A stretch of DNA of 64,000 nt from a bacterium (GTDB taxonomy: Archaea > Micrarchaeota > Micrarchaeia > Micrarchaeales > CABMGC01): the NCBI GenBank assembly GCA_021829835.1, contig JAKBPE010000001.1, positions 352 through 64,351 on the forward strand, in the 5' to 3' direction. The notes beneath the pieces are model-generated. The model searched no databases. It was not told the origin of the DNA and saw only the letters and a program-made list of their open reading frames with translations. Below, piece after piece: positions 2,156-51,781 of the stretch; the first letter of the stretch is position 1, and every line of letters begins with the position of its first letter. The position numbers and the translations under genes were made by a program.

Positions 2156-2822
2156 ATCCCTGGATGTATATGTCTGAGGATAGTTTTCTGCGCGATACGC
2201 TGTGAAGAATTACCTTCCCCTTTCCATTGAATTTTGCAAGAAAGAGGCCTACCCCACCAAACATCGCAGTCCTTATATTATCGACAAATGTTATTTTGTA
2301 GCTCAGGCCTCCTGAAAAACCTGCTATGTGTCCGGGGTCTACTTCCAGAGGGATAGTGCCGTCAAGGTCATATTCGACTATGTCACCGACAACATGCAAG
2401 AATACAGTACCAGGCCCTACAAACTTCTGGAGTATCAAGCCTGCTCCTCCAAAGAACGCCGCGCCTAAGCCTATTGTTTCCATGGTAAATTTAACGCTGT
2501 CAGTTGCTGCCAGAAATGCATAATCCTCAGATACGAAGACCTCTCCTTCTCCAAGGGTTATGGCGCGTATCTTGCCAGGCATTATTCCTGAAAGGGAGAC
2601 AGAACACCTTCCCGTTTCTGCTGTAAAGACAGTAAGCATTGCTGTGGCTCCGGTCACTTTTCGCTCTATTGCGCTGACTAGGCCTCCTACAAGCCTCGGC
2701 TCCATCTTTATCTTTTCGCTCTTGCTCACGAGCTTTCCCGAATCGGCATATATCTTTTCGCCTTCATTGAGGTGGATTGATACTGCCTGCATTGACCCGC
2801 CGAGTATAGTGTAGTCCATCAT
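2121..2822 (-). CDS. AIM24/DUF124 (TIGR00266) family protein
   Basis: The 233-aa length and beta-rich sequence (SGKLVS..., GPGTVFL..., GKGKVILHS) resemble the DUF124 family. A 4-nt overlap with the gatE stop suggests one operon. Confidence 0.55.
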   Translation of the reverse strand: MMDYTILGGSMQAVSIHLNEGEKIYADSGKLVSKSEKIKMEPRLVGGLVSAIERKVTGATAMLTVFTAETGRCSVSLSGIMPGKIRAITLGEGEVFVSEDYAFLAATDSVKFTMETIGLGAAFFGGAGLILQKFVGPGTVFLHVVGDIVEYDLDGTIPLEVDPGHIAGFSGGLSYKITFVDNIRTAMFGGVGLFLAKFNGKGKVILHSVSRRKLSSDIYIQGYEQTKGDSSGK

Positions 2823-12700: not shown

Positions 12701-15700
12701 CCCGATTCCGGTGCATATGCAGAATCCTTTACTAGATAAGAGTAAGTAGTGTTCTGTGAAGGGCTTTCCGTGATGCCCTGTGAGACTGCGTTTGCAATAG
12801 GTGTCTGGCATGAACTCCCGGTATACCATTGATATGAATATGGTGTTGTGCCTCCTGAAGGGTTTGCAGTGAGGGTAACAGATTGTCCGGCATTGATTGC
12901 AGTTGATGATGCAGTTATGCTTCCTATGTTAAGTGGGGAATTTACAGTTATAGTATCAGGAGAGGAACATACAAATACAGAGCTGTTTGTTGTTTCGCCT
13001 GCCCCGTAAGAGTATGTCGACGATGAAGTTAACGAAATATTATATGAAGAGGATGTCGCACCTGAGATTGCGGTTGAACAACCGCTGCCTGAATACCATT
13101 GGTATGTGTATGGGAAAACTCCACCTGAAGGATCAGCAGAGAGAGTAATATATTGCCCTGAGTCAATTGTTGGGCTTGAAGGATAAATGGGATTTGCAAC
13201 AAGAGGCGTGCTTTGGCTATATCCTTTTGGAGAGAAGTCGAATGCTTCATCAAGCCCTGTTGATGTTCTTGCAGAAGTATCGGTTTCTGCAGGATATGTT
13301 GAAAGGATCCAGTTATAGGCCTGTATTGCTGTTGCGTTATTGTCTATGGAGATTATGCCAGCACTGGACATAAGAGCCAGTTGTATGTAGTTAATTTCTC
13401 CTTCGGCAGTATTTGCGCTTTGATTGTACAGGGATGTTCCAATTGAGCCTGAAGCTATATCTGCTTCCCAAACCTGTTTCCATGTCTGTAGTACTGGATT
13501 TGTTACGTTTGCTGAAGAAATATTCAAGACAGGAAGGTCGTATGTTATTCCTGCTTCAGGATTAAAGCCTTCAGGACCAGCAGTAAATCTTCCTGATATG
13601 AAATTAGTCATCCATTTTAGATAAGTCAATGCTCCTGGAACGTTACGTTCTACAGCCGCTATTACAGTGCTCGCGAAGTAATCTTGCTGCCATGGAGCCT
13701 GAATGCAGTTGGTGCCTGGACATGGGTAATAACCATATGCGCCTACGATATATCCATGAGGTTGTACAGAACTGAATGGGGAACTGCTATTTACATATGT
13801 GTCGTATAGATACTGGAATTCTACAGCTTGGTTGTTCTTGAAGAAAGAACTAAGCGGATCTGAATTTGGATCTGCAAATGCAGCATCTATTATCTGGCGA
13901 AGTCTCCAAGCATAGCCTCTTACTTGATCTGCGCCTTCTGCTACGATTACTCTGTTGTTATGCCATGTTGTATATCCAGGATTTACATCAGTAAGGGCAA
14001 ATGTTCCTTGTGCGTCTACCTGGTCAAGATAATGCATGCTGCCAGTAAGAATGTAAGGAATATATGATAGATCTGGCCAATGTGCAGGATCTATACTGAC
14101 TGGATCGCTTCCGTCTGCAAATTGTGTAACACATCCATAAAGCTCGTAACATGCACCATATGGAGGCGGATCAACACTAATATTTGGAAATGTTCCGGTA
14201 TTTAGATAAGAATTTCCTTGAGGATAGTAATAATCCCAGCCCATCGCGCCTGCCTGAGTGTCTGTAAGTTGTGCAAAATTTGATACAGTCTGGTTTTGGC
14301 TGAGCAGCCATGCCGCATTCCAGGTAGGCTGAGGTCCTATATCAGGCCTTCCACCACTTGCTGGCATGTAGAAAGTGATTCCAAAACCGCTCATTATTGT
14401 ATTGTATGCTATTGCAGTTGCAGAATTGCCTAGATTCTCAAGTGAAGAGGCGTAATACGAGACAAGCCCTTTTGAAAGTCCATCTGAAAGATTGTAGGGC
14501 TGTATTGCACCTACCTGTTCCAACTCTGCTATATTATGTACTACGTTTACTTCAGGAGCTCCGTTGCTCCAGGTTTCCCAATTCCATTCGGTGTAGTGAG
14601 GCTGGAAGATATTATTCTTTATAAGAATAGGTTGATTATTTTCTTTGATTACAAGATTATAATTTACGTCGCCACCTACAGGCTGCATTGCGTAATCATT
14701 TGCAAATAACACATCAGTATGTGTTGATCCATCTGCGTATTTTCTTATGTCGAACATTACATGGAATGATCCGCTGACATTGTAATTCACCCTTCCTTCA
14801 ACGCTTTGATTGCCTTGAAGCCAGTATGTAACCGAATTTGATGCGAGTGCGTTTGCAAGCACCGTTGATGCGTTTATCTGATAGTTAGTAACATTATAAG
14901 AAAGGGGTATTTTTTCAATTTCTGAACAATACCAGACAGTACAGCTTACATATAGATATCTGCCATGTGGGCTAATAGTTAACACTTTTGGATTTCCTCC
15001 TGCCTGAGAAGGATTGATGTCTGAGATTGTCCTTATTGTTTTATTTGTAGTCAGATTGAATACAGTTATTGTGCTTCCTGCGTCATCTGAATAGCCATCT
15101 AGTATATATGCAATTGTTCCTGAAGGGTTTATTGTCATTGCTCCTGGTCCGTAACCTATATTAGTTATATTGTAGATAGGCTCTTCTGTTGTTGTATTTA
15201 TTACACTTATTCTTGAACCTTGTATATCCAATACATAAACAAGGTTGCCTGAAGGACTTATTATTGCGATTGATGGACCAGAGTTTGCATAATTTCCTAC
15301 TGTTATTTCCTTAGATATGGTATCGTTGTTAAGATTTACCACACTTACTTGAGATCCTTGCCATACGCCATCATTGTTTACCCCTAGATCGGTAACATAT
15401 GCAGTTGTTCCTGAAGAGGTTATTTCTATGTCGCTTGGGTTCCAGAAGCCACTTATAGTGTTTGTTACTTGATAGGTGGTAAGATTTAATGTGCTTATGG
15501 AGTAATTTCCTGAATTTATTACATAGGCGAGTGGTTTTGTTGGGCTTAGGCGTATAAATGAGGGTCCATCAAATCCTTTTATAACACTGGTTACCTGATG
15601 AGTTACAAGATTTACTATCTCAATAGTGTTATTTCCCTGTGATGCCACATATGCGCTTGTTCCGGAAGGGAATAGAACTATGCTAATTGGTTCAGATCCT

Positions 15701-16653
15701 ACAACTAATGCATTTGTTACCTGCATTGTTGATGTGTTAAAGGTTAAGAGAGTAGAGTTTTCATAGCTTAGTGCATAGCCAGTTGTGCCGTTTGGATTTA
15801 AGGCCATGGCATATTTATGTTCTGTTGTTCCTGTCTGTGTTGAATATGCAGAGAGTGCGTTGGTTATATTGGGTTCACTCATTAGAGTGAGATTCACCTG
15901 CATGTTGTATCCGTTGGAAAGAATGCTCTGCAGTGTGAGTGGAATTTCCGGGTTTGCAGATACAATTCTAAACATTCCTTTGTAAAGTGAATCTGGAGGC
16001 ATTTGTGGGGCGTCCAATGTTACTACAACCATTTTTTCAGTACCGTCCGAATAGGTATTCTTTACGTCTGTCTGAACAGGATACTGAACTCCGTTTATAA
16101 CAGCTGCTATCGAATCACCAATTGGCACTTTCCCTCTTGGAAATATTTCAGCAAATGTTATGTAATGGGAGGGTATTGTCGATGGTTGGTTATTTTGTAG
16201 GTCGAAACTTACAATGTCACTGGAATTCACAGGCTGAAGCATTTTCGGTATGAAAACAAGATATGATGAAGTTAGATTGTAGCCTGCTGAGCAGGAAGAA
16301 ACAGAGGAATTTGTAGATTCTGTTACAAGATAGCTGTATACCATTGATACCTGTGGCTCGGGAGCAGCATATGTTGATGATGTAGCTCCAGATATTGCAT
16401 CTGTAGAGCTGCAGGCAGGATCCCCAGATTCGTTTGCATACCATTGATAATCGTATGAGGATGTGCCGCCTGAAGGATTTGCTGTCAGGGTTACATTGGG
16501 ACTTATTGATTGGTTGTATGTGCCTGCAGTTATATTGCCTGCGGTGATTAGGGGAGATGTGAAAACAGGAGTTTTAGATTGATTAGGTTTGTTTTGTGAG
16601 AGGTAAGAATACCTAAATGTGATAAATGAGATTATTAGGATTACCATCGCCAT
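9796..16653 (-). CDS. Giant (2285 aa) membrane-anchored mosaic surface protein combining Ig-like repeats, a YVTN-type beta-propeller, an unknown central domain, a right-handed beta-helix and a C-terminal anchor module
   Basis: The ORF is uninterrupted with a hydrophobic N-terminus. It has SGGTxPYxYQWY Ig-like repeats and repeated ...AYV.N.G.N.ISV.N..T blades at about 14940-15810. Beta-helix turns occur at about 11700-12640 (NNSYFYNNQDGLL, ENSEFYHNG, IDNRIQD, IENNTIEQG). A Gly/Ser linker lies at about 10868-10985, followed by a C-terminal TM helix (LIVAIAVILIYLIYTTML) and a basic tail. N-x-S/T sequons are dense. Confidence 0.85.
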   Translation of the reverse strand: MAMVILIISFITFRYSYLSQNKPNQSKTPVFTSPLITAGNITAGTYNQSISPNVTLTANPSGGTSSYDYQWYANESGDPACSSTDAISGATSSTYAAPEPQVSMVYSYLVTESTNSSVSSCSAGYNLTSSYLVFIPKMLQPVNSSDIVSFDLQNNQPSTIPSHYITFAEIFPRGKVPIGDSIAAVINGVQYPVQTDVKNTYSDGTEKMVVVTLDAPQMPPDSLYKGMFRIVSANPEIPLTLQSILSNGYNMQVNLTLMSEPNITNALSAYSTQTGTTEHKYAMALNPNGTTGYALSYENSTLLTFNTSTMQVTNALVVGSEPISIVLFPSGTSAYVASQGNNTIEIVNLVTHQVTSVIKGFDGPSFIRLSPTKPLAYVINSGNYSISTLNLTTYQVTNTISGFWNPSDIEITSSGTTAYVTDLGVNNDGVWQGSQVSVVNLNNDTISKEITVGNYANSGPSIAIISPSGNLVYVLDIQGSRISVINTTTEEPIYNITNIGYGPGAMTINPSGTIAYILDGYSDDAGSTITVFNLTTNKTIRTISDINPSQAGGNPKVLTISPHGRYLYVSCTVWYCSEIEKIPLSYNVTNYQINASTVLANALASNSVTYWLQGNQSVEGRVNYNVSGSFHVMFDIRKYADGSTHTDVLFANDYAMQPVGGDVNYNLVIKENNQPILIKNNIFQPHYTEWNWETWSNGAPEVNVVHNIAELEQVGAIQPYNLSDGLSKGLVSYYASSLENLGNSATAIAYNTIMSGFGITFYMPASGGRPDIGPQPTWNAAWLLSQNQTVSNFAQLTDTQAGAMGWDYYYPQGNSYLNTGTFPNISVDPPPYGACYELYGCVTQFADGSDPVSIDPAHWPDLSYIPYILTGSMHYLDQVDAQGTFALTDVNPGYTTWHNNRVIVAEGADQVRGYAWRLRQIIDAAFADPNSDPLSSFFKNNQAVEFQYLYDTYVNSSSPFSSVQPHGYIVGAYGYYPCPGTNCIQAPWQQDYFASTVIAAVERNVPGALTYLKWMTNFISGRFTAGPEGFNPEAGITYDLPVLNISSANVTNPVLQTWKQVWEADIASGSIGTSLYNQSANTAEGEINYIQLALMSSAGIISIDNNATAIQAYNWILSTYPAETDTSARTSTGLDEAFDFSPKGYSQSTPLVANPIYPSSPTIDSGQYITLSADPSGGVFPYTYQWYSGSGCSTAISGATSSSYNISLTSSSTYSYGAGETTNSSVFVCSSPDTITVNSPLNIGSITASSTAINAGQSVTLTANPSGGTTPYSYQWYTGSSCQTPIANAVSQGITESPSQNTTYSYLVKDSAYAPESGCSSPVTISVVPIIITSNATTLTVGPGLEYHSIAAAIANATSGDTVKVAAGTYTNDFPETINFNLTLQGVGGVVNMVATEQPPNDKGILDVGGSGVTVTITHFSFSGAFSDPSSSNGAGIRYEGGNMIINNSYFYNNQDGLLAAPDPNGTILIENSEFYHNGVYNVSSVGYGYTHNMYINDIKLFTIKHSYVHAASVGHEIKSRAQNTVIIDNRIQDENGTASYSVDLPNGGNALIENNTIEQGPFSGNPAIISFGEEGNLHSNSNLQVINNTILNDLNSSSAVAVVNDDPNVTASILGNKFYGLTSSQIATGPNTQTNNILLTKEPRLNTSSVFRSYDKVELVGNTSSGLPQQLFLSYNYSVDLKYPKFNSTISLSSIFNRSILENIVVANETANTSIPSLGSKPIKILVLYINESNPYSLNPESNLTVSYACKYSSVTPYLLNGSVWSPIPILYSSSNPCSIKFNIPNDPVVGVFASETPLSVSISPSTQQSITTGQSLTFTSSVSGGTPPYTYTWISGPSSSCTSDLQISGTNTSSYTATPSSTAYYCLEVTDSAGYNTYSQTTEITVSSASTPTPPSGGGGGGGGGSGSSGSSGSSGSGTAGAGGGGTFKPSVINLNSTCYLVTNLTNPDFAVVNFTGKSFNIRANYISPTDTGITIDGLQYTLSPNSTEIIGGTASYDYIIRLLNISYIPAVHTIASNVCVVPLPGKKILNVTTLPNIQNTGRSITLYNSTNSNLSITINSTKGHQSIINYEKTSSVFAINPTKAIPSSALISITNSTQESPAPPSEYTKLYVLNITYPQYSNLSINADLHYSCSMPQNETFPFEYSGNSWKMITNFTINSKLCTISFQIPKDILLALMKSNVPKSKPSTTNVSKTNTTTIKKTVNTTSVSTSQNSSTEKSSLLIALESKKAEISILIVAIAVILIYLIYTTMLKDKGKKNTPNNGEPNPKNSNIHVPPPVTY

Positions 16654-19127: not shown

Positions 19128-22100
19128 CTATTTTTTCCCAGGTTGGGAATCTGATTTGGAGATTATTTTTGGATCGGCAGGCGGCGGCTTCTGTTTTTCT
19201 GCGGTGTATTTCCCTTTTATGCGCAGGTAATAATAGACAGACAGGATTACTATTGCAATAAATATAGCCAGCAGGAGGTATTCATAGGTATTATATTGAA
19301 GATATTCGGAATTTGTTGTGTTGTTCACTTCAGATGTATTTACAGTGATTATATGGGTGCTTATATTTCTTTTTACAGTATGATTTGATATTTTGGATGT
19401 GTTGATAGTTGGAGTTGAGTTTGTAATTTTTGTATATCTACCGAGTGCAATTATAGGATCGCCCCCAGTAGTTAAAGATACAGTACAAGATTTTGAATTG
19501 ACAGTGAATTGTGTAAACTGTTCCCATGAAGAATTTGACAAAGCGAATGGGAATATCTTGTAGAAAGGTATGCTGCAGTTGTATTTCATTGTTATGGTCA
19601 TGGTTGTGTTTGTAGGAATTGCATTTTGAAGATTTATTCCTTTCACGGAAATATTCTGAACCAGAATCTTATTGTATCCTTGAGGCAGAGGAGGCAGATA
19701 TTGTGCAAGTGTTAAGTTTCTTACAGTAAATCTCTGTTGGGCAGTAAATGCAGATGTTATATTTACAGTTGTTTTCTCAGCCAAAAGATTTAGCTGTACA
19801 GGCACTGCGTTGTAGGTCATAATGTCATAAGTCTCGTTCTGGCCAGTTATATTAATAGGTTTGAGATTTGAAATAGCAATTACCTTTAATGCTATTGTGC
19901 TTTTTACAGGAGTATCGGAAAGGTTGTATATTGACATGTTATATAGGTAGGGTTCACCTGAAGCTTCAAAGATGGTTTTTGATTGGTTTGGATATAGAAC
20001 ATAGTTTTTGCCATTTACAGTTATACCTGCATTTGCATTAGTTATAAAGTTTTCTACAAAATCTAATTTTGTACCTAGAAGTGTTAAATTAAATACAGTT
20101 AGGGGAGTTATGCCGAAGACAACAAATCCGTCATTTATACTTGCCATTTGCGGTTTTGTTCCGGGAAAATTTATATTTGTGCTGTTGCCGACCGCTCCAC
20201 CGCCTGATGATGAGCCGCCTGAAGGACCTGATGAAGTTCCTGAAGAGGTTGAAGGAGAGGAAGAACTACTGATAGATATATCTGCAGTTGGTGAGTTTTC
20301 GATTTCATTTACTGTTGCTGAATCTGTGACTGTGACGTAGTATTTGACGGTCTGCGGCGTTGCGCCTGCAGGTTCCGTAAATATTGAGGATATTGCACCT
20401 GGAATTGCATTCGCGGAGCCTGAAGTGTCATTGTACCATTGGTAGAAGTAAGGAGTAGTACCTCCTGAAACTGATGCGTTTAAAGTGATTGTCTGTCCAG
20501 AAGAATAGGTACCTGATGGAGGGCTTATTGTTGGAGTACCAAGTGCGAGATTGGCTGTGACTAAATCCGTTCCTGATGTTGCGGATGTTGGCGTTGTGGC
20601 TGAATCGGTGACTATGTAGCAGTAATAGGTTGAGGAAGATGGCGAAGCGTGAATAGTATTTGAGGTTGCGCCTGTGATTGCAGTATCGGACGAGCAGGTT
20701 GATGATGTTCCATTATACCATTGGTAGGTGTATGGCGTCGTTCCTCCTGACGGATTTGCGGTTAATGTTACGCTCTGACCTGAATCTATTGTCGGGGATG
20801 AAGGCGTTACTGATCCTGCAGATAGTGCGGTGTTTACCACATCGGAATCTGTTGCGGATGTAGTTGATTCTGGCGTTGTGGCGGAATCGGTGACTATGAT
20901 GTAATATTTGACTGTCTGTGCGGTTGCGCCTGCGGTTTCCGTGAATGTTGCGGATGTTGCGCCTGGAATTGCATTCGCGGAGCCTGAAGTGTCGTTGTAC
21001 CATTGGTATGAATATGGAGTCGTTCCGCCTGAAACTGATGCGGTCAGCGAAACGCTCTGACCTGCGTCGTATGTTGCAGATGAAGGAGAGATTGTCGGCG
21101 TTACGAGTGCGGAATTTACTGTGACTAAATCCGTTCCTGATGTTGCGGATGCTGGAGATGTGGCGGAATCCGTGACTATGTAGCAGTAATATGTGTTTGA
21201 TGTTGGACTTGCGGAATACGTGGATGACGTTGCGCCTGAAATTGCGGTATCTGATGAGCACGTCGATGACGTTCCACTATACCATTGGTAGGTGTATGGC
21301 GTCGTGCCTCCTGACGGATTTGCGGTTAATGTTACGCTCTGACCTGAATCTATTTTTGGAGATGAAGGCGTGACTGCGTTCGCCAGCAATGGGGAGTTGG
21401 TTGAATAAGTTAAAGTGTTGAAAGTTGTGGAGGGAGTGGTTGCACTATCTGTTATAAAGATATTAGCAGTAAATGTGCCTGCGCCCCATATGCTATTTTG
21501 AACAAAAGAGATACTATTTGATGACACTGTTATGCCAGTATAAAGCGCATTATAAACTAAAGAGCCGATTGAATTGTAAACTAAAAAGTTATAAGTGTAG
21601 GGAGAGGTACCGGTTCCACTTGTATCTGCAGTTAATACCTGAGTCTGACCTTCATCTATTAATGAATTTGAAACTTTCCACGAATTTGAGAGGGCAGAAT
21701 TGACCGAAAACGGATTTGAATAAATGGTGTTGGCTATAACATTTGTTGTGGCGGAATCGGTAATTATTGTATTTTCTACCAGATTCCCAAGCCCTACCAT
21801 GGAATTTTGGACTTGTTCGCAGTTTGATTTGGAATTAGCAGTAACAGAACCGAATAAAGCATCAGCTTCAATACTATTTGTGTTTGCTTGTTGAACAATT
21901 AAAAAATTATAAGTAAATGGCGAAGTTCCTCCGTTGGTGCTTGCTGTGAGGCATACATATTGCCCTGCGTCCAACAAGGTGTTGCTTGGATTTGTAATTG
22001 TTGGGACCAATGCAGGATTTAATGTCATCACTCCGCTTTCAACGCTATTTAATGTAACAGGAGTCGTGGCAGAGTCTGTGACAATAACATTTGCCACTAC

Positions 22101-25001
22101 AGTATTTCCAATATATTCGGATGGGAAAGCCCATAAAAAGTTTGCTGAGGCGCTGCTGCTGACTGCATTGTATGAATTTGTTATAAAAGAATCAGTTATA
22201 CTGTTTACAACTATTACATTATAGGCATAATTCGGAGTTCCTCCTGTCCATAATGAATTAAAATTAACATTCTGGCCATAGTCATAACTTTCTGCTGTTG
22301 CTGGTGTGGCAGTCGGTTGAGTCATAACAGAATTGACTATATATGTTTCTGTTGTGGAATTTGAAGTTTCCGGAGTAGTAGCTGAATCTTTAACTTCAAT
22401 ATAATACTTCATTGTTCCTGTCATTCCTGCTGTTGCCGTGTATGTAGATAAAGTTGCTCCACTTATTACTGTTGGTGTTCCTGTTGTATCGTTATACCAT
22501 TGATAAGAATAAGGTGTAGTTCCTCCTGAAACTGATGCGGTCAGCGAGACGCTCTGACCTGAGTCATAAGTTGCAGATGAAGGAGAGATTGTCGGCGTTC
22601 CGAGTGCGAGATTAGCTGAGACTGTATCTATCGGAGAACCTGAAACCGCATTAGGTGTGGCAGAGTCTGTCACAATATAGCAGTAGTATGTAGTTGAAGT
22701 TGGAGATGCTAAATAATTTGCGGAAGTGGCGCCTGAAATTGCGGTATCTGATGAGGAACAAAGCCCTGAACTTGAAGAGGCAGTATACCATTGGTATGAA
22801 TATGGGGTTGTTCCGCCTGAAACAGCTGAAATTAAATTGACTGACTGCCCTGAATCTAATGTAGGAGAATAAGGAGTGATAGGATCTGCTAGTAATGCAT
22901 TATTTGCCCCTGCCATTGAACCTTCGCTTGTAGTAGGCATGATGTCTTTTGGAGGGGCGGTTCTAACCCTATACCATTGTGTATACTCGTTAGATGCAAA
23001 AGACACCCCACCATAATAAACTGCCCCTAATTCTGGGAATAATAAGCCTGAAGCATGAACATAGATGCTGAAAAATGGGTCAGTGTAGGTTTGATAGGTT
23101 ATTCCTAAATGGTCTGAAACATTATAAAGCATAGAATATATGCCAAAGGCATCTGGTGGGTAGTTAGTAGTGTAGAAAATGCCACCATTACCATCATATC
23201 CACAGACATTACATCCTTCTTGTGTTTGCCCTAAAAAGACAATAGAATCATTGCCTACATTATCCATGAAGCCACCGATTGTAAAAGAACCATCATATGT
23301 TGATGGGGTTGTTGAGAGTGCCTCAAAGACATTTCCTGCGGCATATCTTGTTGTGGCATTTATTGCTTCGGCATTGGCAATTGTAGATGAACCTATTAAT
23401 GTAATTCCATTATTTATGGTATAAGTTATTCCGTTTACATGCCATTTTGAACTGAGAGTCGTTCCGGCAAAATCAGAATAGAAGCTAAACACGTTGTTTC
23501 CATTGTCATACTCTGCATAGTCAGAACACGTCGCAGTCGCGGCTGGGTTCGCACAGCTGAGCTGAGGCGCTTCCCCTGTGCTCACTCCGTTCAGCAAGTT
23601 TGTGCTGGTGCTTGCGATTCCGAGGTAAATCGTGTAGGGGATTGTCATCGATGCTGGTAGCTCGTTGACTGTGTTCGCTCCGAGGTTCACCCACCAGAGG
23701 ACGTTCGCTGATGTTGAGAGTGCTGTGGACTGCTCGTTCAGGACGTTTCCTTCCAGCCAGCTTGGAATTATCGTTCCGTTGGCGTAGAAGAACTCGGTGT
23801 TCATCAGGTTGGAGGCTAGGTAGCTCGAGAACGGGATGGCGTTGAAGCCTATAATGTTTCCATTGCTTGAGACGCCTATCGCTAGAGGCGTGTTTGCCGA
23901 GACGGCTACTGACTGCGTGTTGATGATGTTGATTGGGATGTAGTAGAGGATGTTGGCTGGGCTGACTACTGGATCGTCGAGGCTGTAGTTCTGGTTTCCA
24001 AGGCCCTCGAATGTGAAGTTGTAAGGCTCTGTTGGGCTTAGGCTGAATGTCTTTGTGATGCTTACTGAGCCCATGGTGTTGTCCGAGAAGCTGAGAATCG
24101 TGTTCGAGCCTGCCTGTATCAAGGCGTTGAACGGCACTCTGTTTCCCTGAACCAGATGGCTGATTAGCTTAACTGTGATGTTGAGAGGCGCACAGTCGTT
24201 CAGCCCCCAGCATCCGTTGTAGACAGCTACAGGCAGATGGTAGCTTCCTGGCTTGGTCAGCGTCTCGTTGAAGAGCCTTGAGCTTAACTGGATGTAGGAG
24301 TAGCTTTGGTTCTTGCTTACCTGAAATTTGTTGAATTGGACTGAGCCATAGATTGAATTGTAAGTTGCGTTTATTTTGTCTGAGCCTGCTGGTATCGGCT
24401 TTGCGTTACTGTATAGTGAACCATATGGCAGAGTAGCAGTCTGATTGTGGATTAAGCCTAAGTTTATTGGTGAATTTGGGTTTACGCCTATAGCTTCCAA
24501 AGCGTTGGATTGCTGTGAGTTCCACTCGGTACTCCATTGGATAGAATTAAAGGAAGTGGAGAAATACAGTATTGTTGGTTTTGATAAGGAAATTACATTA
24601 GATACTGGCACTGCGTTGTTTATAATGTAGTTCATCCCATTGTAGCTTATTGAATTTTGACCTGGTTCGTAAAGAACATTTCCATTTAAAGTGTTTGCTG
24701 TAAGCATGTTCATGGATATTTGGAAGATGTCTGTGTAACTTGTGATGTTTAGAGACCGGTTGGTTAATCCTGAAAGAGGTCCAAGCCGAATAAGATAAGT
24801 TGAGCCTGGGGGCAGGCCGATGATTTCCAGCATGGCATTTTCTGGGCTGCTTGTGGATTGGGAAGTGGACTGATTTGGAGATGCGTGAAGCATAAACATT
24901 AAAGAAACAATCAGAACGGCTGAGATTGTCAGAATTGTTGAGAAGAAAATTAAATAATCATAGTCGATTCTTTTGAAGAAATCTGTCTTGCAATTATTCA
25001 C
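19128..25001 (-). CDS. Giant (1957 aa) membrane-anchored surface protein with a DUF2341-like plus LamG-like N-terminal region, about 11 Ig-like repeats and a C-terminal anchor module
   Basis: The ORF is uninterrupted with an N-terminal TM segment (IFFSTILTISAVLIVSLMFML). A DUF2341-like pattern is present (YYIPINIINTQS...FFYANGTIIPSWLEGN...NVLWWVNL...YTIYLG), followed by a concanavalin/LamG-like stretch. Next comes the Ig-like array, then a Ser/Gly linker at about 20195-20275. The C-terminus is a TM helix (LLLAIFIAIVILSVYYYL) plus a basic tail. Confidence 0.85.
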   Translation of the reverse strand: MNNCKTDFFKRIDYDYLIFFSTILTISAVLIVSLMFMLHASPNQSTSQSTSSPENAMLEIIGLPPGSTYLIRLGPLSGLTNRSLNITSYTDIFQISMNMLTANTLNGNVLYEPGQNSISYNGMNYIINNAVPVSNVISLSKPTILYFSTSFNSIQWSTEWNSQQSNALEAIGVNPNSPINLGLIHNQTATLPYGSLYSNAKPIPAGSDKINATYNSIYGSVQFNKFQVSKNQSYSYIQLSSRLFNETLTKPGSYHLPVAVYNGCWGLNDCAPLNITVKLISHLVQGNRVPFNALIQAGSNTILSFSDNTMGSVSITKTFSLSPTEPYNFTFEGLGNQNYSLDDPVVSPANILYYIPINIINTQSVAVSANTPLAIGVSSNGNIIGFNAIPFSSYLASNLMNTEFFYANGTIIPSWLEGNVLNEQSTALSTSANVLWWVNLGANTVNELPASMTIPYTIYLGIASTSTNLLNGVSTGEAPQLSCANPAATATCSDYAEYDNGNNVFSFYSDFAGTTLSSKWHVNGITYTINNGITLIGSSTIANAEAINATTRYAAGNVFEALSTTPSTYDGSFTIGGFMDNVGNDSIVFLGQTQEGCNVCGYDGNGGIFYTTNYPPDAFGIYSMLYNVSDHLGITYQTYTDPFFSIYVHASGLLFPELGAVYYGGVSFASNEYTQWYRVRTAPPKDIMPTTSEGSMAGANNALLADPITPYSPTLDSGQSVNLISAVSGGTTPYSYQWYTASSSSGLCSSSDTAISGATSANYLASPTSTTYYCYIVTDSATPNAVSGSPIDTVSANLALGTPTISPSSATYDSGQSVSLTASVSGGTTPYSYQWYNDTTGTPTVISGATLSTYTATAGMTGTMKYYIEVKDSATTPETSNSTTETYIVNSVMTQPTATPATAESYDYGQNVNFNSLWTGGTPNYAYNVIVVNSITDSFITNSYNAVSSSASANFLWAFPSEYIGNTVVANVIVTDSATTPVTLNSVESGVMTLNPALVPTITNPSNTLLDAGQYVCLTASTNGGTSPFTYNFLIVQQANTNSIEADALFGSVTANSKSNCEQVQNSMVGLGNLVENTIITDSATTNVIANTIYSNPFSVNSALSNSWKVSNSLIDEGQTQVLTADTSGTGTSPYTYNFLVYNSIGSLVYNALYTGITVSSNSISFVQNSIWGAGTFTANIFITDSATTPSTTFNTLTYSTNSPLLANAVTPSSPKIDSGQSVTLTANPSGGTTPYTYQWYSGTSSTCSSDTAISGATSSTYSASPTSNTYYCYIVTDSATSPASATSGTDLVTVNSALVTPTISPSSATYDAGQSVSLTASVSGGTTPYSYQWYNDTSGSANAIPGATSATFTETAGATAQTVKYYIIVTDSATTPESTTSATDSDVVNTALSAGSVTPSSPTIDSGQSVTLTANPSGGTTPYTYQWYNGTSSTCSSDTAITGATSNTIHASPSSSTYYCYIVTDSATTPTSATSGTDLVTANLALGTPTISPPSGTYSSGQTITLNASVSGGTTPYFYQWYNDTSGSANAIPGAISSIFTEPAGATPQTVKYYVTVTDSATVNEIENSPTADISISSSSSPSTSSGTSSGPSGGSSSGGGAVGNSTNINFPGTKPQMASINDGFVVFGITPLTVFNLTLLGTKLDFVENFITNANAGITVNGKNYVLYPNQSKTIFEASGEPYLYNMSIYNLSDTPVKSTIALKVIAISNLKPINITGQNETYDIMTYNAVPVQLNLLAEKTTVNITSAFTAQQRFTVRNLTLAQYLPPLPQGYNKILVQNISVKGINLQNAIPTNTTMTITMKYNCSIPFYKIFPFALSNSSWEQFTQFTVNSKSCTVSLTTGGDPIIALGRYTKITNSTPTINTSKISNHTVKRNISTHIITVNTSEVNNTTNSEYLQYNTYEYLLLAIFIAIVILSVYYYLRIKGKYTAEKQKPPPADPKIISKSDSQPGKK
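20280..22920 (-). repeat. In-frame array of Ig-like coding repeats inside the 1957-aa gene, with three A+B repeat pairs that are near-identical at DNA level
   Basis: Segments at 20707-20800 and 21271-21363 match almost base for base at an offset of 564 bp (188 codons). Similar matches link 20398-20470 to 20959-21060, and 21001-21110 to 22500-22610. Confidence 0.85.
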
Positions 25002-30934: not shown

Positions 30935-32044
30935 TCATATGCTGGAATTTGCATATTGAATGGCATCCACAGTGGTTTGGGGAAGCGAGAGGTATCTGCA
31001 GTCTGTAACAACTATAGGCGAGGATATTACATTATAGTATTTTGCAAGTACAGCCTGCCTGTTTACATACGTGCCAGCTGAATTCAGGCAATTGTTGATC
31101 TTACTTGTGTTCAATCCTGCATTTGAAGCATAAGCTGATAACTGCGCCTGTGAGATGTAGCTTCCCGAATATGAGTTTTCAAGGCTCTTTGTGAATGATA
31201 CGAATGGCTGGCCTCCCTGTTCAGAAGAGCAGAAGAGATAATCGCCGAGCTGCATTGTCTTGTTTAAGCCATATACATTGGCTATGCCTTGTGAATACTG
31301 CGTAAATAATATCTCGAGGGATATCTTTATCTTTGAGCCGTATTCGGCTTGCAGTGAAGTCATGTTTGCAAGGCTACTTATGCCTCCAGGACTATAAGGG
31401 TCAACAAACCAGTAAACTTGAAGCGGCGAGGCTGTACCACAAGCCACCTTTCCAGAAAGTGCCACAACTCCTTTTGATACTACGAGATTTCCTGAAGCTT
31501 GATAGACAGGTGCTGCCGGAGCTATAGTCTGTATCATAGGGATTATCTCCGATACGTTGCTGTCATTTATCATCATAGAGAAATGGAGAAGCTCTCCTCC
31601 GGAAGGGTTTTCTATTGGAAATGAGACATACCAGTAATGATTTGAAGGGTTGTAGCTGAAGTTCATAAGATTTACTTCTGAGATGTATGGAAGCAGAGAG
31701 AGAGATGTATTTATAGTACTGTATCCTGCCAGGAATTCTTCAGCATATGATTTTATCTGGCTCTCATTGTGCAGCGGAAGTATGCATCTACCGTTTGCTA
31801 TGCCATATTCACATGTTAGAAAGCTTGTTGTATTTGTGGAAACATTTGAAGTGGAGATATTTACCAGAGGTTGTTTGTAGAAAGATATGACAAGCAGTAC
31901 TGCTATCAGTATTACAACTAAGGATATCAATGCGAGATGTATGCTGTCAAGGCCTCCAGTCTTGCCCAGGGGCTTTACTATGACGCTTGGCGCCTTAATC
32001 TGATTTTCCTTTTTTGCAGGCATATTTATACCATTATTATGCAA
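30935..32044 (-). CDS. Membrane-anchored extracytoplasmic protein, possibly with a degenerate DsbA/thioredoxin-like C-terminal domain
   Basis: An N-terminal TM helix is present (LALISLVVILIAVLLVISF). VYWFVDPYSPGG occupies the position of a DsbA F.D..CP.C motif but has no Cys pair. The C-terminal pattern NCLNS...V..QA..A...NVISSPIVV is DsbA-like. This is low-certainty motif recognition. Confidence 0.4.
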   Translation of the reverse strand: MHNNGINMPAKKENQIKAPSVIVKPLGKTGGLDSIHLALISLVVILIAVLLVISFYKQPLVNISTSNVSTNTTSFLTCEYGIANGRCILPLHNESQIKSYAEEFLAGYSTINTSLSLLPYISEVNLMNFSYNPSNHYWYVSFPIENPSGGELLHFSMMINDSNVSEIIPMIQTIAPAAPVYQASGNLVVSKGVVALSGKVACGTASPLQVYWFVDPYSPGGISSLANMTSLQAEYGSKIKISLEILFTQYSQGIANVYGLNKTMQLGDYLFCSSEQGGQPFVSFTKSLENSYSGSYISQAQLSAYASNAGLNTSKINNCLNSAGTYVNRQAVLAKYYNVISSPIVVTDCRYLSLPQTTVDAIQYANSSI

Positions 32045-32072: not shown

Positions 32073-32179
32073 CGGGCCCGGCGGGAATTTCATGGCACTG
32101 CAGTCTTCCGCATTGCCTTTTGAACCCGCGGCCTTTTCCTTAGGACGGAACCGATCTATCCAAGCTGAGCTACGGGCCC
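32073..32179 (-). tRNA. tRNA-Arg(CCU) with a putative non-canonical intron of about 32 nt in the T-loop (between positions 58-60)
   Basis: The reverse complement is GGGCCCG-TA-GCTC-AGCTTGGATA-GATC-G-GTTCC-GTCCTAA-GGAAA-AGGCC-GCGGG-TTCAAA[AGGCAATGCGGAAGACTGCAGTGCCATGAAAT]T-CCCGC-CGGGCCC-G. The acceptor and T stems are perfect only if the bracketed insert is removed. The D stem and the 27-43 pair each have one mismatch. Confidence 0.65.
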
Positions 32180-32186
32180 ATTATCA

Positions 32187-34103
32187 TTACATCCTTTCTG
32201 TTGTGTCAATATTTATTAAACAAAGCATATTAAATAATGCTTGTTTTACCGCCATAACTATCCCTGTCCTTAAGGTTCTGTATTCCTCACCGGAAAGCAC
32301 GGGCATTTTTTCATAGAAATTTGAAAATATCAGTGATAGCTCCATAACATATGTAGCTATTATGCTTGGCTTGTATTCCCTGCAGGCTTTCTCTATGGTT
32401 TCCTGCATTGCGCCTATCTGCTTTATTATCATGAAATCTTCGCCCCTTGTTATCTTTTTGAAATCGGCATCTGCAAGCCGAATGCCTTCCTTGCCTACGC
32501 CTGCCCTTTCGAGTATCCTTGAAGCCCTGGCGTACATATACATGCAGTATGGTCCGCTGTTGGAGTTTAAGTCGAGTGCCTTGTCCCATTCGAAGAGAAC
32601 CTTCTTTTCTGGATCTGTTTTCAGAAACTCAAATTTTATAGCAGCTAATGCCACTTTGCGCGATACCTCTTTTATGTCTATATCAGATCTTGGCTTCTCA
32701 GCATTTGATACTATGTCTGATGTCATTTTTTCCATCTCCTCAAGAAGCGAGTCTGCAGTATAGCTCTTGGTTGTGCCAATCCATCCTCCTTTTCTTCCGC
32801 TTAATGTTCCGCCTTTGACGCTTACTTCTCCATACGATAAATGCAGTATGCGCTGCTCTCCTGTTATTTCTTCAAATATTCTTTTTAGGAGGTTTTGGGG
32901 ATGCTGCTGTGCAGCTCCTATTATATTTATTGCAAGGTCTGCTTTTCCGAAACCCATCGCCTTCCCATTTTCTGAAGAGGTGTATGCCTTCTTTCCATTA
33001 GGCTGAATAATGAATTCGGAAAAATTGAATTGGCAGTCTATGATCCCAAGTTTCCACATATGAAATGCGAGGTCTTTTGCCAGATATGTGGCTACCCCAT
33101 TGCTTCGTATCAATACCTTCCTGTTTTCTTCGTCATCAGTTTCCGCATCGGTCGCCTGGCCGGGTTCTTTGTTAGCTATGACAACACAGCCTGCGTACTT
33201 TCCTTCAGTGCATTTTTGGGTTATCTTCTTTTCGGCGAGAAAATCAATGGCATGCTTTAGCAGCTTCTCCCTGACTATATCGCTCTCCCATACCAAGACA
33301 TCGTGGTATATGCCGTATGAGAATGCGGTATCGTACTGCGCCCTTACGCTTTTTTCGGAGATCTTCCTTATCTCAACGGATTCCTTGCTGGACGTATCCT
33401 CCATTTTTTTAAGTATTGCGTTGACTTCTTTTTCTGCATGCCTCTCTGTTATCTCCTTGTTTATCTCAACATATGCCTCTCCCAGAAGCGTGTCGTATTT
33501 TTTGGTATCTTCATGCAGGAACTTCTCTCTGCCCCATAGGATCTCAGCCATCTGCAAGCCAAGGTCGTCTATGTAATCTTCCCGCTCCACAATGTATGAA
33601 TTTGCCTCAAATATCCTGGATATTGAATCGCCGAGGAGAGCATTGCGGAGATGGCCTATATGCCACGGCTTGTTAGGGTTTACACTTGGAAATTCTATTA
33701 TGACCTTCCTGGCTGAGCCAATGCTTGAAATTCCGTATTTTTCTTTTTCTGAAAATATCGCTTCAAGAACATGTTTTGAGTATTCCGCTTCGTCCAGCCA
33801 TAGGTTTATGTATCCGTTTTCATTTTTTATCCTGCTTGTAAAATCTTCTTTCCCCAGATACGTTTCGAGCTTTGATGCCATCTCATGTGCGATCTCCATA
33901 GGCGATTTTTTTGCGAGCCTTGCCAGAGCAAAGCATATTGATGAGCTTAGGTCTCCCTGTTCAGGTCTTGGTGTTGATATCGAGTTGTGTATCTCTCTGG
34001 AAAAGACATTGAAATCTGGAATGACCTCGCTGAAGGACTTCCTTATTTCCGAAGCCAAAGCTTCTTCAAATACTCTTTTTATTTTAATTGAATTCAGATT
34101 CAA
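32187..34103 (-). CDS. argS: Arginine--tRNA ligase
   Basis: It has the HIGH-region NPNKPWHIGHLRNALLGD and a class I fold, is 638 aa, and has a DALR-like C-terminal anticodon-binding region. Confidence 0.92.
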   Translation of the reverse strand: MNLNSIKIKRVFEEALASEIRKSFSEVIPDFNVFSREIHNSISTPRPEQGDLSSSICFALARLAKKSPMEIAHEMASKLETYLGKEDFTSRIKNENGYINLWLDEAEYSKHVLEAIFSEKEKYGISSIGSARKVIIEFPSVNPNKPWHIGHLRNALLGDSISRIFEANSYIVEREDYIDDLGLQMAEILWGREKFLHEDTKKYDTLLGEAYVEINKEITERHAEKEVNAILKKMEDTSSKESVEIRKISEKSVRAQYDTAFSYGIYHDVLVWESDIVREKLLKHAIDFLAEKKITQKCTEGKYAGCVVIANKEPGQATDAETDDEENRKVLIRSNGVATYLAKDLAFHMWKLGIIDCQFNFSEFIIQPNGKKAYTSSENGKAMGFGKADLAINIIGAAQQHPQNLLKRIFEEITGEQRILHLSYGEVSVKGGTLSGRKGGWIGTTKSYTADSLLEEMEKMTSDIVSNAEKPRSDIDIKEVSRKVALAAIKFEFLKTDPEKKVLFEWDKALDLNSNSGPYCMYMYARASRILERAGVGKEGIRLADADFKKITRGEDFMIIKQIGAMQETIEKACREYKPSIIATYVMELSLIFSNFYEKMPVLSGEEYRTLRTGIVMAVKQALFNMLCLINIDTTERM

Positions 34104-49584: not shown

Positions 49585-49974
49585 ATTTGGACTCGGCAGG
49601 GATCTCGCCAGCGACCTCGCCGTTGCGAACGAGTGTGAGTCCCTAGCTTTTTCGTCTAGCTTTTGTTTCATTTTAGCACCGTAGATTTTATTTTCGTTAA
49701 ATACGGACATCTGTGTCTTCGCACACAGATTATGGCGGGTTTAAAAAATAATATCGTCGAGATCGCATTCAGACCCGCTTGCGGATTCGTCACCAGATTT
49801 TTCCTCAGCTTCTTGATAAAACTTCTTCCCAAGAAGTTTTGTGGACTCGACAAGACATCAACAATTGAGTATGATGTATAAAAACCATTATCTAAATGGT
49901 GTTTGATGGTATTTGATTGTATTTACTTACATTCACTAGCATTCTATGGTCTTGACTCCAACTTTCCTAGCAAG
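49585..49974 (-). repeat. Composite island repeat, copy C (pseudo-tRNA, hairpin 49709-49730, 23-nt palindrome 49818-49840, tail running into the vapC 3' end)
   Basis: By eye it aligns nearly base for base with 50591-50998 (a few substitutions and one indel of about 20 nt). Confidence 0.85.
49588..49643 (-). pseudogene. D-armless pseudo-tRNA-Ala (copy C)
   Basis: The reverse complement is GGGACTCACACTCG-TTCGCAA-CGGCGAGGTC-GCTGG-CGAGATC-CCTGC-CGAGTCCA. It shares the anticodon loop and the 3' acceptor end CGAGTCCA with the bona fide tRNA-Ala at 51710-51781, but it lacks the D arm and has a mispaired T stem. Confidence 0.7.
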
Positions 49975-50322
49975 TTCTGCCTGATTGCCATCGCAGGTTA
50001 CTAGCTCGTAAGAGTTCTTTAGCGCCGCAGCTACGAACATAGCATCGTATATAGATGAATTGTATTTCTTAGCAATTTCAAAGGCCTTAATGATATGCTT
50101 TTTTTCTTCTATAAATCTGAAAGTACTTGGGTACCTCTCAAGGATCTCCACCACTTTCTTATAATCAAGCTCATTCTTACGGACTTTCTTCAGAAGTGCG
50201 CTGCCTAACTCTATCATGGAAAGTTCTATGCTTATGGGCTCATAGAGATACACCTCCACATCTTCCCATCCTGGCTCTTCTGAAAAGTACTTGACAATAA
50301 CGGAACTATCAATGAGTCTCAT
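49936..50322 (-). CDS. vapC: PIN-domain ribonuclease toxin
   Basis: The N-terminus MRLIDSSVIVKYF carries the catalytic Asp. Later acidic residues occur in IYDAMFVAAAL and VTCDGNQ. It overlaps the upstream antitoxin gene by 14 nt. Confidence 0.8.
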   Translation of the reverse strand: MRLIDSSVIVKYFSEEPGWEDVEVYLYEPISIELSMIELGSALLKKVRKNELDYKKVVEILERYPSTFRFIEEKKHIIKAFEIAKKYNSSIYDAMFVAAALKNSYELVTCDGNQAELARKVGVKTIEC

Positions 50323-50527
50323 TTCTATCTTCTCTTATCGATTTTACCGCAAATCCTGCTTTTGATGGCTTTGAGGTTTTAACAATTTCTTTCAATTCGA
50401 GTAAAACTTTTTTGGCATTTGCCTTCCATGCCATATCCTCTATATAATCTTTTGGGTTTATGCCAGCTTTTTTAAGCTGCTCCATAGTACCACGCTTTAC
50501 TCTAATACTTATTACTTCGGTGTCCAT
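50309..50527 (-). CDS. vapB: RHH/CopG-like antitoxin; start trimmed to the Met at 50527
   Basis: MDTEVISIRVKRGTMEQLKK shows a beta-strand plus helix RHH pattern. The longer ORF (to 50677) would run through the pseudo-tRNA repeat, so I prefer the internal start. Confidence 0.65.
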   Translation of the reverse strand: MDTEVISIRVKRGTMEQLKKAGINPKDYIEDMAWKANAKKVLLELKEIVKTSKPSKAGFAVKSIREDRNETH

Positions 50528-50540
50528 AATTATATTATGG
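50524..50540 (-). promoter_or_regulatory. Inverted repeat CCATAAT-TAT-ATTATGG overlapping the vapB start codon (candidate operator)
   Basis: A perfect 7-bp inverted repeat was read directly and covers the ATG at 50525-50527. Confidence 0.35.
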
Positions 50541-50590
50541 CATACAGATATATAAACATTTTTGTTTACATAATTGATTACATAAATAAT

Positions 50591-50998
50591 AAGTGGACTC
50601 GGCAGGGATCTCACCAGCAACCTCGCCATTGCAAACGGGTGTGAGTCCCTAGCTTTTTCGTCTATATTTCTAGCCATTTAGTTCACCGTAGATTTTATTT
50701 TTTCAAATGCGAACATCTGTGTCTTCGCACACAGATTATGGCGGATTTAAAAATATAAACAGATACGGTGCAGATATCGTCGAGATCGCATTCAGATCCG
50801 CTTGTGGATTCGTCGCCAGATTTTTCCTCAGCTTCTTGATAAAACTTCTTCCCAAGAAGTTTTGTGGACTCGACAAGACATCAACAATTGAGTATGATGT
50901 ATAAAAACAATTATCTAAATGGTGTTTAATGGTATTTGATTGTACTTGCTTACATTCACTAGCATTCTATTGTCTTGACTCCAACTTTCCTAGCAAGC
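50591..50998 (-). repeat. Composite island repeat, copy D (pseudo-tRNA, hairpin 50715-50736, palindrome 50841-50863, tail running into the second PIN gene 3' end)
   Basis: See copy C. This copy additionally retains the TATAAACAGATACGGTGCA block found in copy A (47664-47682) but deleted from copy C. Confidence 0.85.
50594..50649 (-). pseudogene. D-armless pseudo-tRNA-Ala (copy D)
   Basis: The reverse complement is GGGACTCACACCCG-TTTGCAA-TGGCGAGGTT-GCTGG-TGAGATC-CCTGC-CGAGTCCA. It has the same architecture as copy C with a few substitutions, and the anticodon loop is now TTTGCAA. Confidence 0.7.
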
Positions 50999-51389
50999 CT
51001 ATTAGCTCCTTTGTGGAAATAATACGTATTCTTTTTTGTGTGCTAAAATCCAGATCATGGCTCCATATAAGTGTATTTTCATAGAGTGCACAAGAGATGT
51101 AAAGCCAGTCCTTAGAATCATCTACGAGGCTTGCCGCAGCAAGGAGGAAAGGTCTAAGATTCTTGTCTGGAACGAGGATAAGCTGGCCAAGAATCTTGTC
51201 AACTAATCTGTAAAATTCTTCATTGTTCAGTCCTGATTTTTTTCTTACTTCGGCAAGATGGCGTGCAAATTCATCAACAATGAATTCTGGCGCAAAAAGG
51301 GACAGCGCCGGGTTAAAGAACAGTTTTCTTGTTGTTGAATCTTTTATGAGGCATGCAAACAGCATGTTTGCATCAACGGTTATTTTCAT
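50967..51389 (-). CDS. PIN-domain toxin (second family, unrelated in sequence to 49936-50322)
   Basis: MKITVDANMLFACL carries the N-terminal Asp, and acidic residues occur at DDSKDW and SHDLDF. It overlaps the upstream antitoxin gene by 17 nt. Confidence 0.75.
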   Translation of the reverse strand: MKITVDANMLFACLIKDSTTRKLFFNPALSLFAPEFIVDEFARHLAEVRKKSGLNNEEFYRLVDKILGQLILVPDKNLRPFLLAAASLVDDSKDWLYISCALYENTLIWSHDLDFSTQKRIRIISTKELIGLLGKLESRQ

Positions 51390-51709: not shown

Positions 51710-51781
51710 TGGACTCGGCGGGATTCGCACCCGCGGCCTTTTCGTTGCGAACGAAACGCGCTGCTACTGCGCCACGAGCCC
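51710..51781 (-). tRNA. tRNA-Ala(CGC), intact, 72 nt, no encoded CCA
   Basis: The reverse complement is GGGCTCG-TG-GCGC-AGTAGCA-GCGC-G-TTTCG-TTCGCAA-CGAAA-AGGCC-GCGGG-TGCGAAT-CCCGC-CGAGTCC-A. All stems pair, and the G3:U70 alanine identity pair is present. AT-rich TATA-like sequence lies upstream (51791-51825). Confidence 0.9.

Follow-up and report, generated by a model that had tools for sequence, protein, structure and literature searches.

The stretch analysed here, hereafter the window, comprises 64,000 nucleotides of contig JAKBPE010000001.1 (G+C of about 41%), from a DPANN archaeon belonging to the phylum of ARMAN-2 (Micrarchaeota); the nearest relatives of its ArgRS come from sources labelled Candidatus Micrarchaeota, Micrarchaeia or Micrarchaeaceae. 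Its minus strand carries, in the order of transcription, argS, which encodes arginine--tRNA ligase (ArgRS), a gene for tRNA-Arg(CCU) whose T-loop is interrupted by an insert, and an open reading frame (ORF) that we call gene X (Table 1). The comparisons described below make it very probable that the second of these is a functional Micrarchaeota tRNA-Arg(CCU) gene with a 32-nt intron of the bulge-helix-bulge (BHB) type between positions 59 and 60, and that it is most likely transcribed from a promoter embedded in argS.

Table 1. Features of the argS–tRNA-Arg(CCU)–gene X locus (window coordinates; codons of argS are counted back from its end)
Feature	Coordinates	Strand	Remarks
argS, arginine--tRNA ligase	32187..34103	-	stop TAA 32189-32187; ORF ends ...GAA AGG ATG TAA; first start TTG at 34103, start uncertain
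Block 1 in argS, codons -18 to -13 (caa gca tta ttt aat atg)	32226..32243	-	A/T-rich; candidate TFIIB recognition element (BRE)/TATA or upstream promoter element
Block 2 in argS, codons -10 to -7 (tta ata aat att)	32219-32208	-	A/T-rich stretch 32208..32220; 32220 is the last base of codon -11
Spacer / 5′ leader, tgataat	32180..32186	-	7 nt; GATAAT invariant in the six closest relatives
pre-tRNA-Arg(CCU)	32179..32073	-	107 nt; G1 at 32179, discriminator G73 at 32073
5′ exon, positions 1-59	32119..32179	-	anticodon CCU 32144-32142; A20 present
T arm with BHB-like motif	32086..32129	-	fold and forced-register analysis
Intron between positions 59 and 60	32087..32118	-	32 nt
3′ exon, U60 to G73	32073..32086	-	CCA not encoded
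Gene X	30935..32023	-	363 aa; N-terminal membrane helix, many N-x-S/T sites; starts 49 nt past the tRNA 3′ end

The tRNA reads GGGCCCG UA GCUC AGCUUGGAUA GAUC G GUUCC GUCCUAA GGAAA AGGCC GCGGG UUCAAA[AGGCAAUGCGGAAGACUGCAGUGCCAUGAAAU]U CCCGC CGGGCCC G, with the intron in brackets; on the minus strand, the spacer TGATAAT is followed by GGGCCCGUAGCUCAGCUUGGAUAGAUCGGUUCCGUCCUAAGGAAAAGGCCGCGGGUUCAAA-[AGGCAAUGCGGAAGACUGCAGUGCCAUGAAAU]-UCCCGCCGGGCCCG, the last base being 32073. A20 and C35, the main identity elements for ArgRS, are both present. When the 32 nt were deleted in silico, ARAGORN called a 75-nt tRNA-Arg(cct), and the same call was obtained for 42 orthologues. A first-pass annotation of this DNA, made from the letters alone, had named this isoacceptor, had placed an intron of about 32 nt in its T-loop, had set the start of the gene 7 nt past the argS stop codon, and had stated that removal of the intron leaves GCGGG-UUCAAAU-CCCGC and a perfect acceptor stem. 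Each of these statements holds: the insert is exactly the stretch it quoted, the spacer occupies 32186-32180, the upstream ORF is an ArgRS, and both the T arm and the acceptor stem are as described.

The ARAGORN run suggested by the same annotation had a divided outcome, the spliced sequence being called whereas the unspliced gene was missed in both default and anticodon-intron mode; the default run reported tRNA-Ala alone in the whole window. Similarly, the unspliced gene gave no Rfam match at the gathering threshold in a window scan that returned the 5S rRNA and two other tRNAs. A permissive search of the unspliced locus reached 15.7 bits against the RF00005 threshold of 29, with the T arm skipped, while intron-less orthologues score 58-62 bits on the Rfam tRNA model. 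The other permissive matches at the locus (mir-971, ncS54, sR19 and others) all have E > 1, which is chance level. The failure of the gene finders is a limit of the tools and not evidence against a tRNA-Arg(CCU) gene. A split or permuted tRNA gene was ruled out, both exons being contiguous and collinear.

An ArgRS alignment scan with one genome per species yielded 80 Micrarchaeota argS loci, 47 of which carry a same-strand tRNA-Arg(CCU) downstream of argS within the fetched flank; among the 33 loci lacking it, the downstream flank is shorter than 500 nt in 6, which are not countable as true absences. An insert of 13-42 nt is found at the identical T-loop site in 33 of the 43 complete copies, and orthologues thus back the first-pass intron call. 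Nine copies have no insert at all and display GCGGG-UUCAAAU-CCCGC or a covarying equivalent, and one (L018) has an anticodon-loop intron in place of the T-loop intron. In these ten copies the T-loop reads exactly UUCAAAU, or UCCAAAU in L020. Using 35 distinct spliced sequences and 21 cloverleaf pairs, we found pairing in 95.2% of cells and both-side changes in 8 of the 21 pairs. The acceptor and anticodon stems account for three each, and the remaining two belong to the T stem, where the pairs span the insert. None of 500 shuffles matched the observed covariation score, and sliding the 3′ partners by 1-3 columns brought pairing down to 23-47%. Pairing and covariation across the orthologues show that the tRNA gene is functional and that its two exons co-evolve.

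We then considered that the sequence could be a decaying pseudogene, or a chance tRNA-like sequence broken by an insertion. This idea draws on the rejection of the unspliced sequence by standard gene finders, as well as on the D-stem mismatch and the unusual G32 of the window copy. We give it next to no credence, given that the exons are essentially identical in relatives with ArgRS 60-69% identical, that compensatory changes maintain all four stems, and that synteny is kept in 47 of 80 species.

The minimum free energy (MFE) fold of the 107-nt precursor (-47.1 kcal/mol, z = -3.3) shows a T stem, a bulge, a short helix, an AAA/A loop and a hairpin inside the intron. In this arrangement, GCGGG (32129-32125) pairs with CCCGC (32085-32081) to form the T stem, and UUCA (32124-32121, U54-A57) pairs with UGAA (32092-32089) at the 3′ end of the intron, forming a central helix of 4 bp. 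The 3′ site is a canonical 3-nt bulge, AUU (32088-32086). The 5′ site is a 3x1 internal loop, in which AAA (32120-32118) faces a single A (32093), and the intron-internal hairpin is GGCA.UGCGG/CUGCA.UGCC. The BHB rule, derived from the canonical 37/38 case, sets cleavage after the second base of each bulge; applied here, it gives the cuts A59↓A and AU↓U60 (arrows, cuts), that is, position 59/60, and a mature loop UUCAAAU as in the intron-less orthologues.

Since plain MFE folding of the T arms often favors a 6x6 internal loop over the BHB (18 of 34 sequences), the motif was scored in forced register. In this register, the central helix between UUCA and the intron 3′ end can form all four pairs in 28 of the 34 T-loop introns and three of four in the other 6. 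The junctions fall into strict 3-4-3 BHB (13 of 34), strict with one central-helix mismatch (6), relaxed (5, the window among them) and bulge-helix-loop (10). The window junction is strict in its 3′ half and relaxed in its 5′ half. Folding the pre-tRNA, a check proposed in the first-pass annotation, thus gave a BHB-like motif at the junctions, canonical in its 3′ bulge but relaxed on its 5′ side. The same annotation had held that an intron at 58-60 requires a relaxed endonuclease, and this stands in part: position 59/60 alone does not demand a relaxed enzyme, but the shape of the window junction, with its 3x1 loop at the 5′ site, does.

In the six close relatives (ArgRS 96% to 60% identical), the exons are identical except for one compensated anticodon-stem pair in L002. 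Conservation extends to the intron boundaries, UUCAAA↓A and AUG(A/G)AAN↓U, while the hairpin interior has diverged. Conserved boundaries around a divergent interior are, as a pattern of sequence conservation, the signature of a spliced BHB intron and not of a functional insert. Judged by its junctions and by its relatives, the 32-nt insert is very probably a BHB-type, protein-spliced intron between T-loop positions 59 and 60.

A self-splicing group I or group II intron was rejected, the insert having 32 nt against the hundreds of nucleotides of a catalytic core, and no significant Rfam hit being found at E up to 10. We also rejected an intron-encoded C/D-box guide RNA: the C (RUGAUGA) and D (CUGA) boxes are absent from the 32 nt, there is no relevant Rfam match, and the intron interior is not conserved. 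Alternatively, the 32 nt could be retained, the tRNA or a tRNA-like RNA working with an enlarged T-loop hairpin, and the insert does fold as a stable hairpin. However, an insert at 59/60 would break the contact between T-loop and D-loop of a normal tRNA. Moreover, its length and sequence are free to vary (13-42 nt), the only bases kept being those of the BHB central helix and the bulges, and the ten orthologues without it have the regular T-loop given above. Together with the in vitro excision of an insert of like kind in ARMAN-2 (PMC3239211), this makes a retained insert very improbable.

Three sets of observations weigh against a spliced, functional tRNA gene. The 5′ cleavage site of the window intron has no clean bulge. 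A splicing endonuclease (EndA) domain was not found with Pfam and NCBIfam in the 41 window ORFs scanned, all of at least 100 aa and exclusive of the two giant ORFs. Finally, the window copy departs from a standard tRNA in a C11.U24 mismatch, in G32, and in a non-Watson-Crick opposition at 27.43. Of these departures, G32 is shared by almost every orthologue, 27.43 is a purine.A opposition in 33 of the 35 distinct spliced sequences, and the C11.U24 D-stem mismatch is confined to the window's own subclade. Because they are common to relatives, we regard the three oddities as lineage traits and not as decay.

On a neighbor-joining tree of ArgRS, most major clades contain the T-loop intron and at least three subclades lack it, a distribution indicating that it is old and was repeatedly lost, and that it is not a recent insertion. 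Two other intron-related observations were made in this set. In L018 (5885-5990, +), the 31-nt anticodon-loop insert contains a near copy of the anticodon arm, with UCU and not CCU (GATGCCGTCCTAAGG ... GATGCCGTTCTAAGG); alternative splicing to two isoacceptors was considered and dropped, the BHB being poor in the MFE fold. In the near-identical loci L024 (5828-5882) and L026 (4738-4792, +), the tRNA diverges from the exon just past CCTAA, in the anticodon loop (…CGTCCTAA↓CTCGCATGGGTGCGA, the arrow marking the divergence point). The contig stops at this point, which may reflect another intron position or an assembly break.

We next turn to the linkage of the tRNA with argS. The argS ORF scores 503 bits on NCBIfam NF002447 (cut-off 460), and PF03485, PF00750 and PF05746 are found in 1332 homologues of the window ArgRS. 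The tRNA 5′ end lies 7 nt past the argS TAA on the same strand. Of the 47 linked loci, 17 have gaps of 0-20 nt, another 14 have gaps of 33-135 nt, and the remaining 16 show distances of 0.2-4 kb. Those spaced by no more than 20 nt form one deep clade of the ArgRS tree, hereafter the tight clade, in which L020 is a nested exception. As far as these genomes go, the argS–tRNA linkage is a conserved, phylum-wide feature and not an oddity of one genome. The first-pass annotation had called the coupling of synthetase and tRNA unusual, a word that goes too far: the intron is of a known kind and the linkage is a phylum-wide trait. No description of a synthetase gene adjacent to its cognate tRNA gene in archaea was found in a limited literature search, and the combination of this linkage with a promoter apparently lying within coding sequence is a modest but real novelty.

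In loci with a gap of at least 33 nt, an obvious TATA box is seen in the spacer. A TATA matrix was built from 28 intergenic promoters of the orthologous tRNA, whose consensus is TTTAAATAT, mostly starting 35-27 nt upstream of the tRNA. Over the last 66 nt of argS, this matrix scored a mean of 6.3 bits in the tight loci versus 2.6 in the others (Mann-Whitney 1e-8, a value that ignores phylogeny). The best site of the window is AATAAATAT (32217..32209, 6.8 bits), which starts 38 nt upstream of the tRNA 5′ end and falls into the second of two A/T-rich blocks near the end of argS (blocks 1 and 2 in Table 1). Block 2 also holds the best site in the window's subclade, while in most tight loci the best site is in block 1, ATATATAA, at about -52 to -55 (loci with gaps of 0-3 nt).

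Synonymous sites point in the same direction. We compared the information content of third codon positions between 16 non-redundant members of the tight clade and the 62 other loci. In the tight clade, third positions carry 1.1-2.0 bits at nine of the ten block codons and 0.8 at codon -7, typical codons being CAA nnA ATA TAT AAT ATG in block 1 and TTA TTA GGT ATA in block 2. These third positions are A or T save in the two ATG codons (69% A/T at codon -14). Farther upstream in these genes, codons -40 to -20 give values of 0.05-0.75 bits, mostly below 0.5, the synonymous sites being largely randomised, and the block codons of the 62 other loci mostly show 0-0.5 bits. The A/T excess over the gene average at the argS 3′ end is +0.136 in the tight clade versus about 0 elsewhere. 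Block 2 is nearly identical in relatives with ArgRS merely 68-69% identical. Its glycine, which never varies among the 62 loci that do not belong to the tight clade, is replaced in the window and in L081, L003, L001, L083 and L002, where LLGI has become LINI or LLNI. The swap from Gly to Asn takes away the sole G/C bases of the TATA-like block and produces an uninterrupted A/T run; an overlapping DNA signal seems to have driven this protein change. From these patterns, it is most likely that when the spacer collapsed, the tRNA promoter stayed inside the argS reading frame. The first-pass annotation had pointed to a TATA-like element at 32208-32220 as one option, besides co-transcription with argS. 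The A/T stretch is there, and the frozen synonymous sites and the matrix score speak for it; on these grounds the buried TATA element is the better supported option, and co-transcription is possible.

The locus L020 (5740-6242, +) has a 364-nt gap and yet keeps both frozen argS blocks (ttatataacatg…cttttaggtata), and by eye a TATA-like stretch is visible at about -33 to -26 upstream of its tRNA. This locus would represent either a recent insertion or a hint at a further role of the blocks.

Certain features of the data count against an argS-embedded promoter. All tight-gap loci belong to one clade, so the promoter statistics reflect one long-maintained origin and not independent replicates. 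The argS end contains two candidate TATA blocks. In addition, the best TATA site of the window lies 6-9 nt farther upstream than in loci with intergenic promoters. The tRNA could instead have no promoter of its own and arise solely by read-through from argS (or HD-argS), being freed by RNase P and RNase Z, while the A/T blocks serve otherwise; one possibility is that they keep the mRNA end unstructured for RNase P access. Such an arrangement agrees with the short gap (7 nt here, 0-20 nt in 17 loci), with the absence of an oligo-T tract between argS and the tRNA, and with the presence of such a tract past the tRNA in just 2 of 43 loci. It also agrees with the position of gene X, which in most loci begins 12-65 nt past the tRNA, a spacing that leaves a promoter no space, and is frequently preceded by GGTG, a Shine-Dalgarno-like motif. 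Nevertheless, the frozen blocks are specifically TATA-like, with scores like those of the intergenic promoters of the orthologous tRNA, and they occur only where intergenic promoter space was lost; L020, a member of the tight clade, has its TATA-like stretch in the 364-nt gap. We therefore consider transcription by read-through alone to be rather unlikely, and we favor a promoter inside argS.

The other stable-RNA genes of the window also have TATA boxes: TTTATATA at -32 for tRNA-Gly, TTTAATAT at -30 for tRNA-Ala, and TTTATATA at -31 for 5S rRNA. With boxes of these two types 23-32 nt upstream of the mature 5′ ends (loci 1454-1566, -; 51710-51781, -; and 105, +), their positions imply that the primary transcripts of stable RNAs in the window would be almost leaderless.

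Gene X, for which no Pfam or NCBIfam match was found, lies downstream of the tRNA in 41 of 43 loci, in most cases at a distance of 12-65 nt, even where argS is kilobases off. Its pairing with the tRNA is thus more constant than that of argS with the tRNA, and this gene order suggests co-transcription. Since neither a terminator nor an oligo-T tract separates argS from the tRNA, read-through from argS into the tRNA is likely, and the HD-argS-tRNA-X array may be one transcription unit punctuated by the tRNA. A further-reaching proposal is that argS, tRNA-Arg(CCU) and gene X form a regulatory unit, with the argS end shaped over a very long period for the tRNA promoter, the tRNA acting as a processing site, and possibly a feedback through ArgRS binding. 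If this were true, binding of ArgRS to the tRNA in the argS mRNA would couple the level of the synthetase to tRNA supply; we regard it as an improbable, speculative extension.

Based on these data, we propose the following model. The tRNA promoter would lie within the last ~55 nt of argS, with the TATA-like site at 32217-32209. In archaeal promoters, the TATA box is located some 25-30 nt ahead of the start. With block 2 as the TATA box, the transcript would begin roughly 6-9 nt before the mature 5′ end, inside TAATGATAAT, a position that the conserved GATAAT would fit; should block 1 be the TATA box, with block 2 as a proximal element, initiation would be expected near 32207. Read-through from argS likely contributes as well. 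In the precursor, U54-A57 and the 3′-terminal UGAA of the intron would form the 4-bp central helix, flanked by the T stem as outer helix and the intron hairpin as inner helix. A splicing endonuclease, presumably of the broad-specificity epsilon-2 type known for the phylum, would cut both sites, A58 A59↓A in the 3x1 internal loop and AU↓U in the canonical bulge, and an RNA ligase would join the exons to restore the T-loop UUCAAAU. RNase P would trim the 5′ end and RNase Z the 3′ end, followed by CCA addition.

Several other genes of the window relate to tRNA or to compact genome organization. A tRNA-Gly(UCC) gene (105-217, +) has a 39-nt intron at the canonical 37/38 position; it scores 53 bits in Rfam and is found by ARAGORN in intron mode only. 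Introns thus interrupt two of the window's three tRNA genes, in line with the 56% reported for ARMAN-2. CCA is encoded in none of the three, and a CCA-adding enzyme is encoded at 53518-54921 (+). The GatE/GatD genes of an archaeal Glu-tRNA-Gln amidotransferase occupy 2819-6013 (-). The 5S rRNA gene stands alone. Two PIN-domain genes with small upstream ORFs (49936-51389, -) resemble toxin-antitoxin pairs, and the two giant ORFs are located at 9796-16653 (-, 2285 aa) and 19128-25001 (-, 1957 aa).

These observations have several implications. An annotation made without detection of non-canonical introns leaves this genome, and at least 33 other Micrarchaeota species, seemingly lacking a decoder of AGG. 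The retention of a T-loop intron at one site in most of the phylum, with three or more losses, bears on whether such introns are recent invaders or old residents. A protein-coding 3′ end overlapping the apparent promoter of the next gene would be a clean case, provided by nature, of dual coding where archaeal genomes are highly compact, and the argS–tRNA pair allows the co-expression of a synthetase and its substrate tRNA to be tested.

Linkage of a synthetase gene with its cognate tRNA gene is known from pylS-pylT, and in tRNA-punctuated transcripts a tRNA serves as an RNase P/Z site between coding regions. Unlike pylS-pylT, the present pair consists of an ordinary ArgRS and a tRNA-Arg that is one isoacceptor among several, its linkage is confined to one phylum, and the tRNA promoter is apparently embedded in the coding sequence of the synthetase.

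The intron itself is a further example of the 59/60 kind already described. In ARMAN-2, Fujishima et al. (2011) reported a 13-nt 59/60 intron with a relaxed hBH motif in pre-tRNA-Cys, as well as introns at 53/54 and 59/60 in tRNA-Pro (PMC3239211). The three-unit epsilon-2 endonuclease of this organism cuts canonical and 59/60 introns in vitro (PMC3239211), and a structural study from 2025 confirmed the activity of epsilon-2 EndA on BHB and bulge-helix-loop substrates (PMC12397907). The window intron shares with the ARMAN-2 59/60 introns the phylum, the insertion point, and the use of T-loop bases as the central helix of a (relaxed) BHB, and the short orthologous introns of 13-15 nt are of the bulge-helix-loop type cleaved in vitro in ARMAN-2. 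It differs from the ARMAN-2 tRNA-Cys intron in that it resides in tRNA-Arg(CCU), has 32 nt and an inner hairpin, and presents a 3x1 loop and not an open loop at its 5′ site.

Like the non-canonical introns of Thermoproteales/Crenarchaeota, which are handled by (alpha-beta)2 enzymes, it lies outside 37/38; those junctions too are often relaxed (hBH/HBh') and are matched by a broad-specificity enzyme (PMC3239211). The phylum and the architecture of the enzyme are different, however, and the introns of Thermoproteales look recently gained, whereas the Micrarchaeota intron appears old and repeatedly lost. Finally, the canonical 37/38 BHB intron follows the same chemistry and the same 3-4-3 rule, with cleavage after the second bulge base; in the window intron, the T stem takes the place of the anticodon stem as outer helix, and the 5′ bulge is relaxed.

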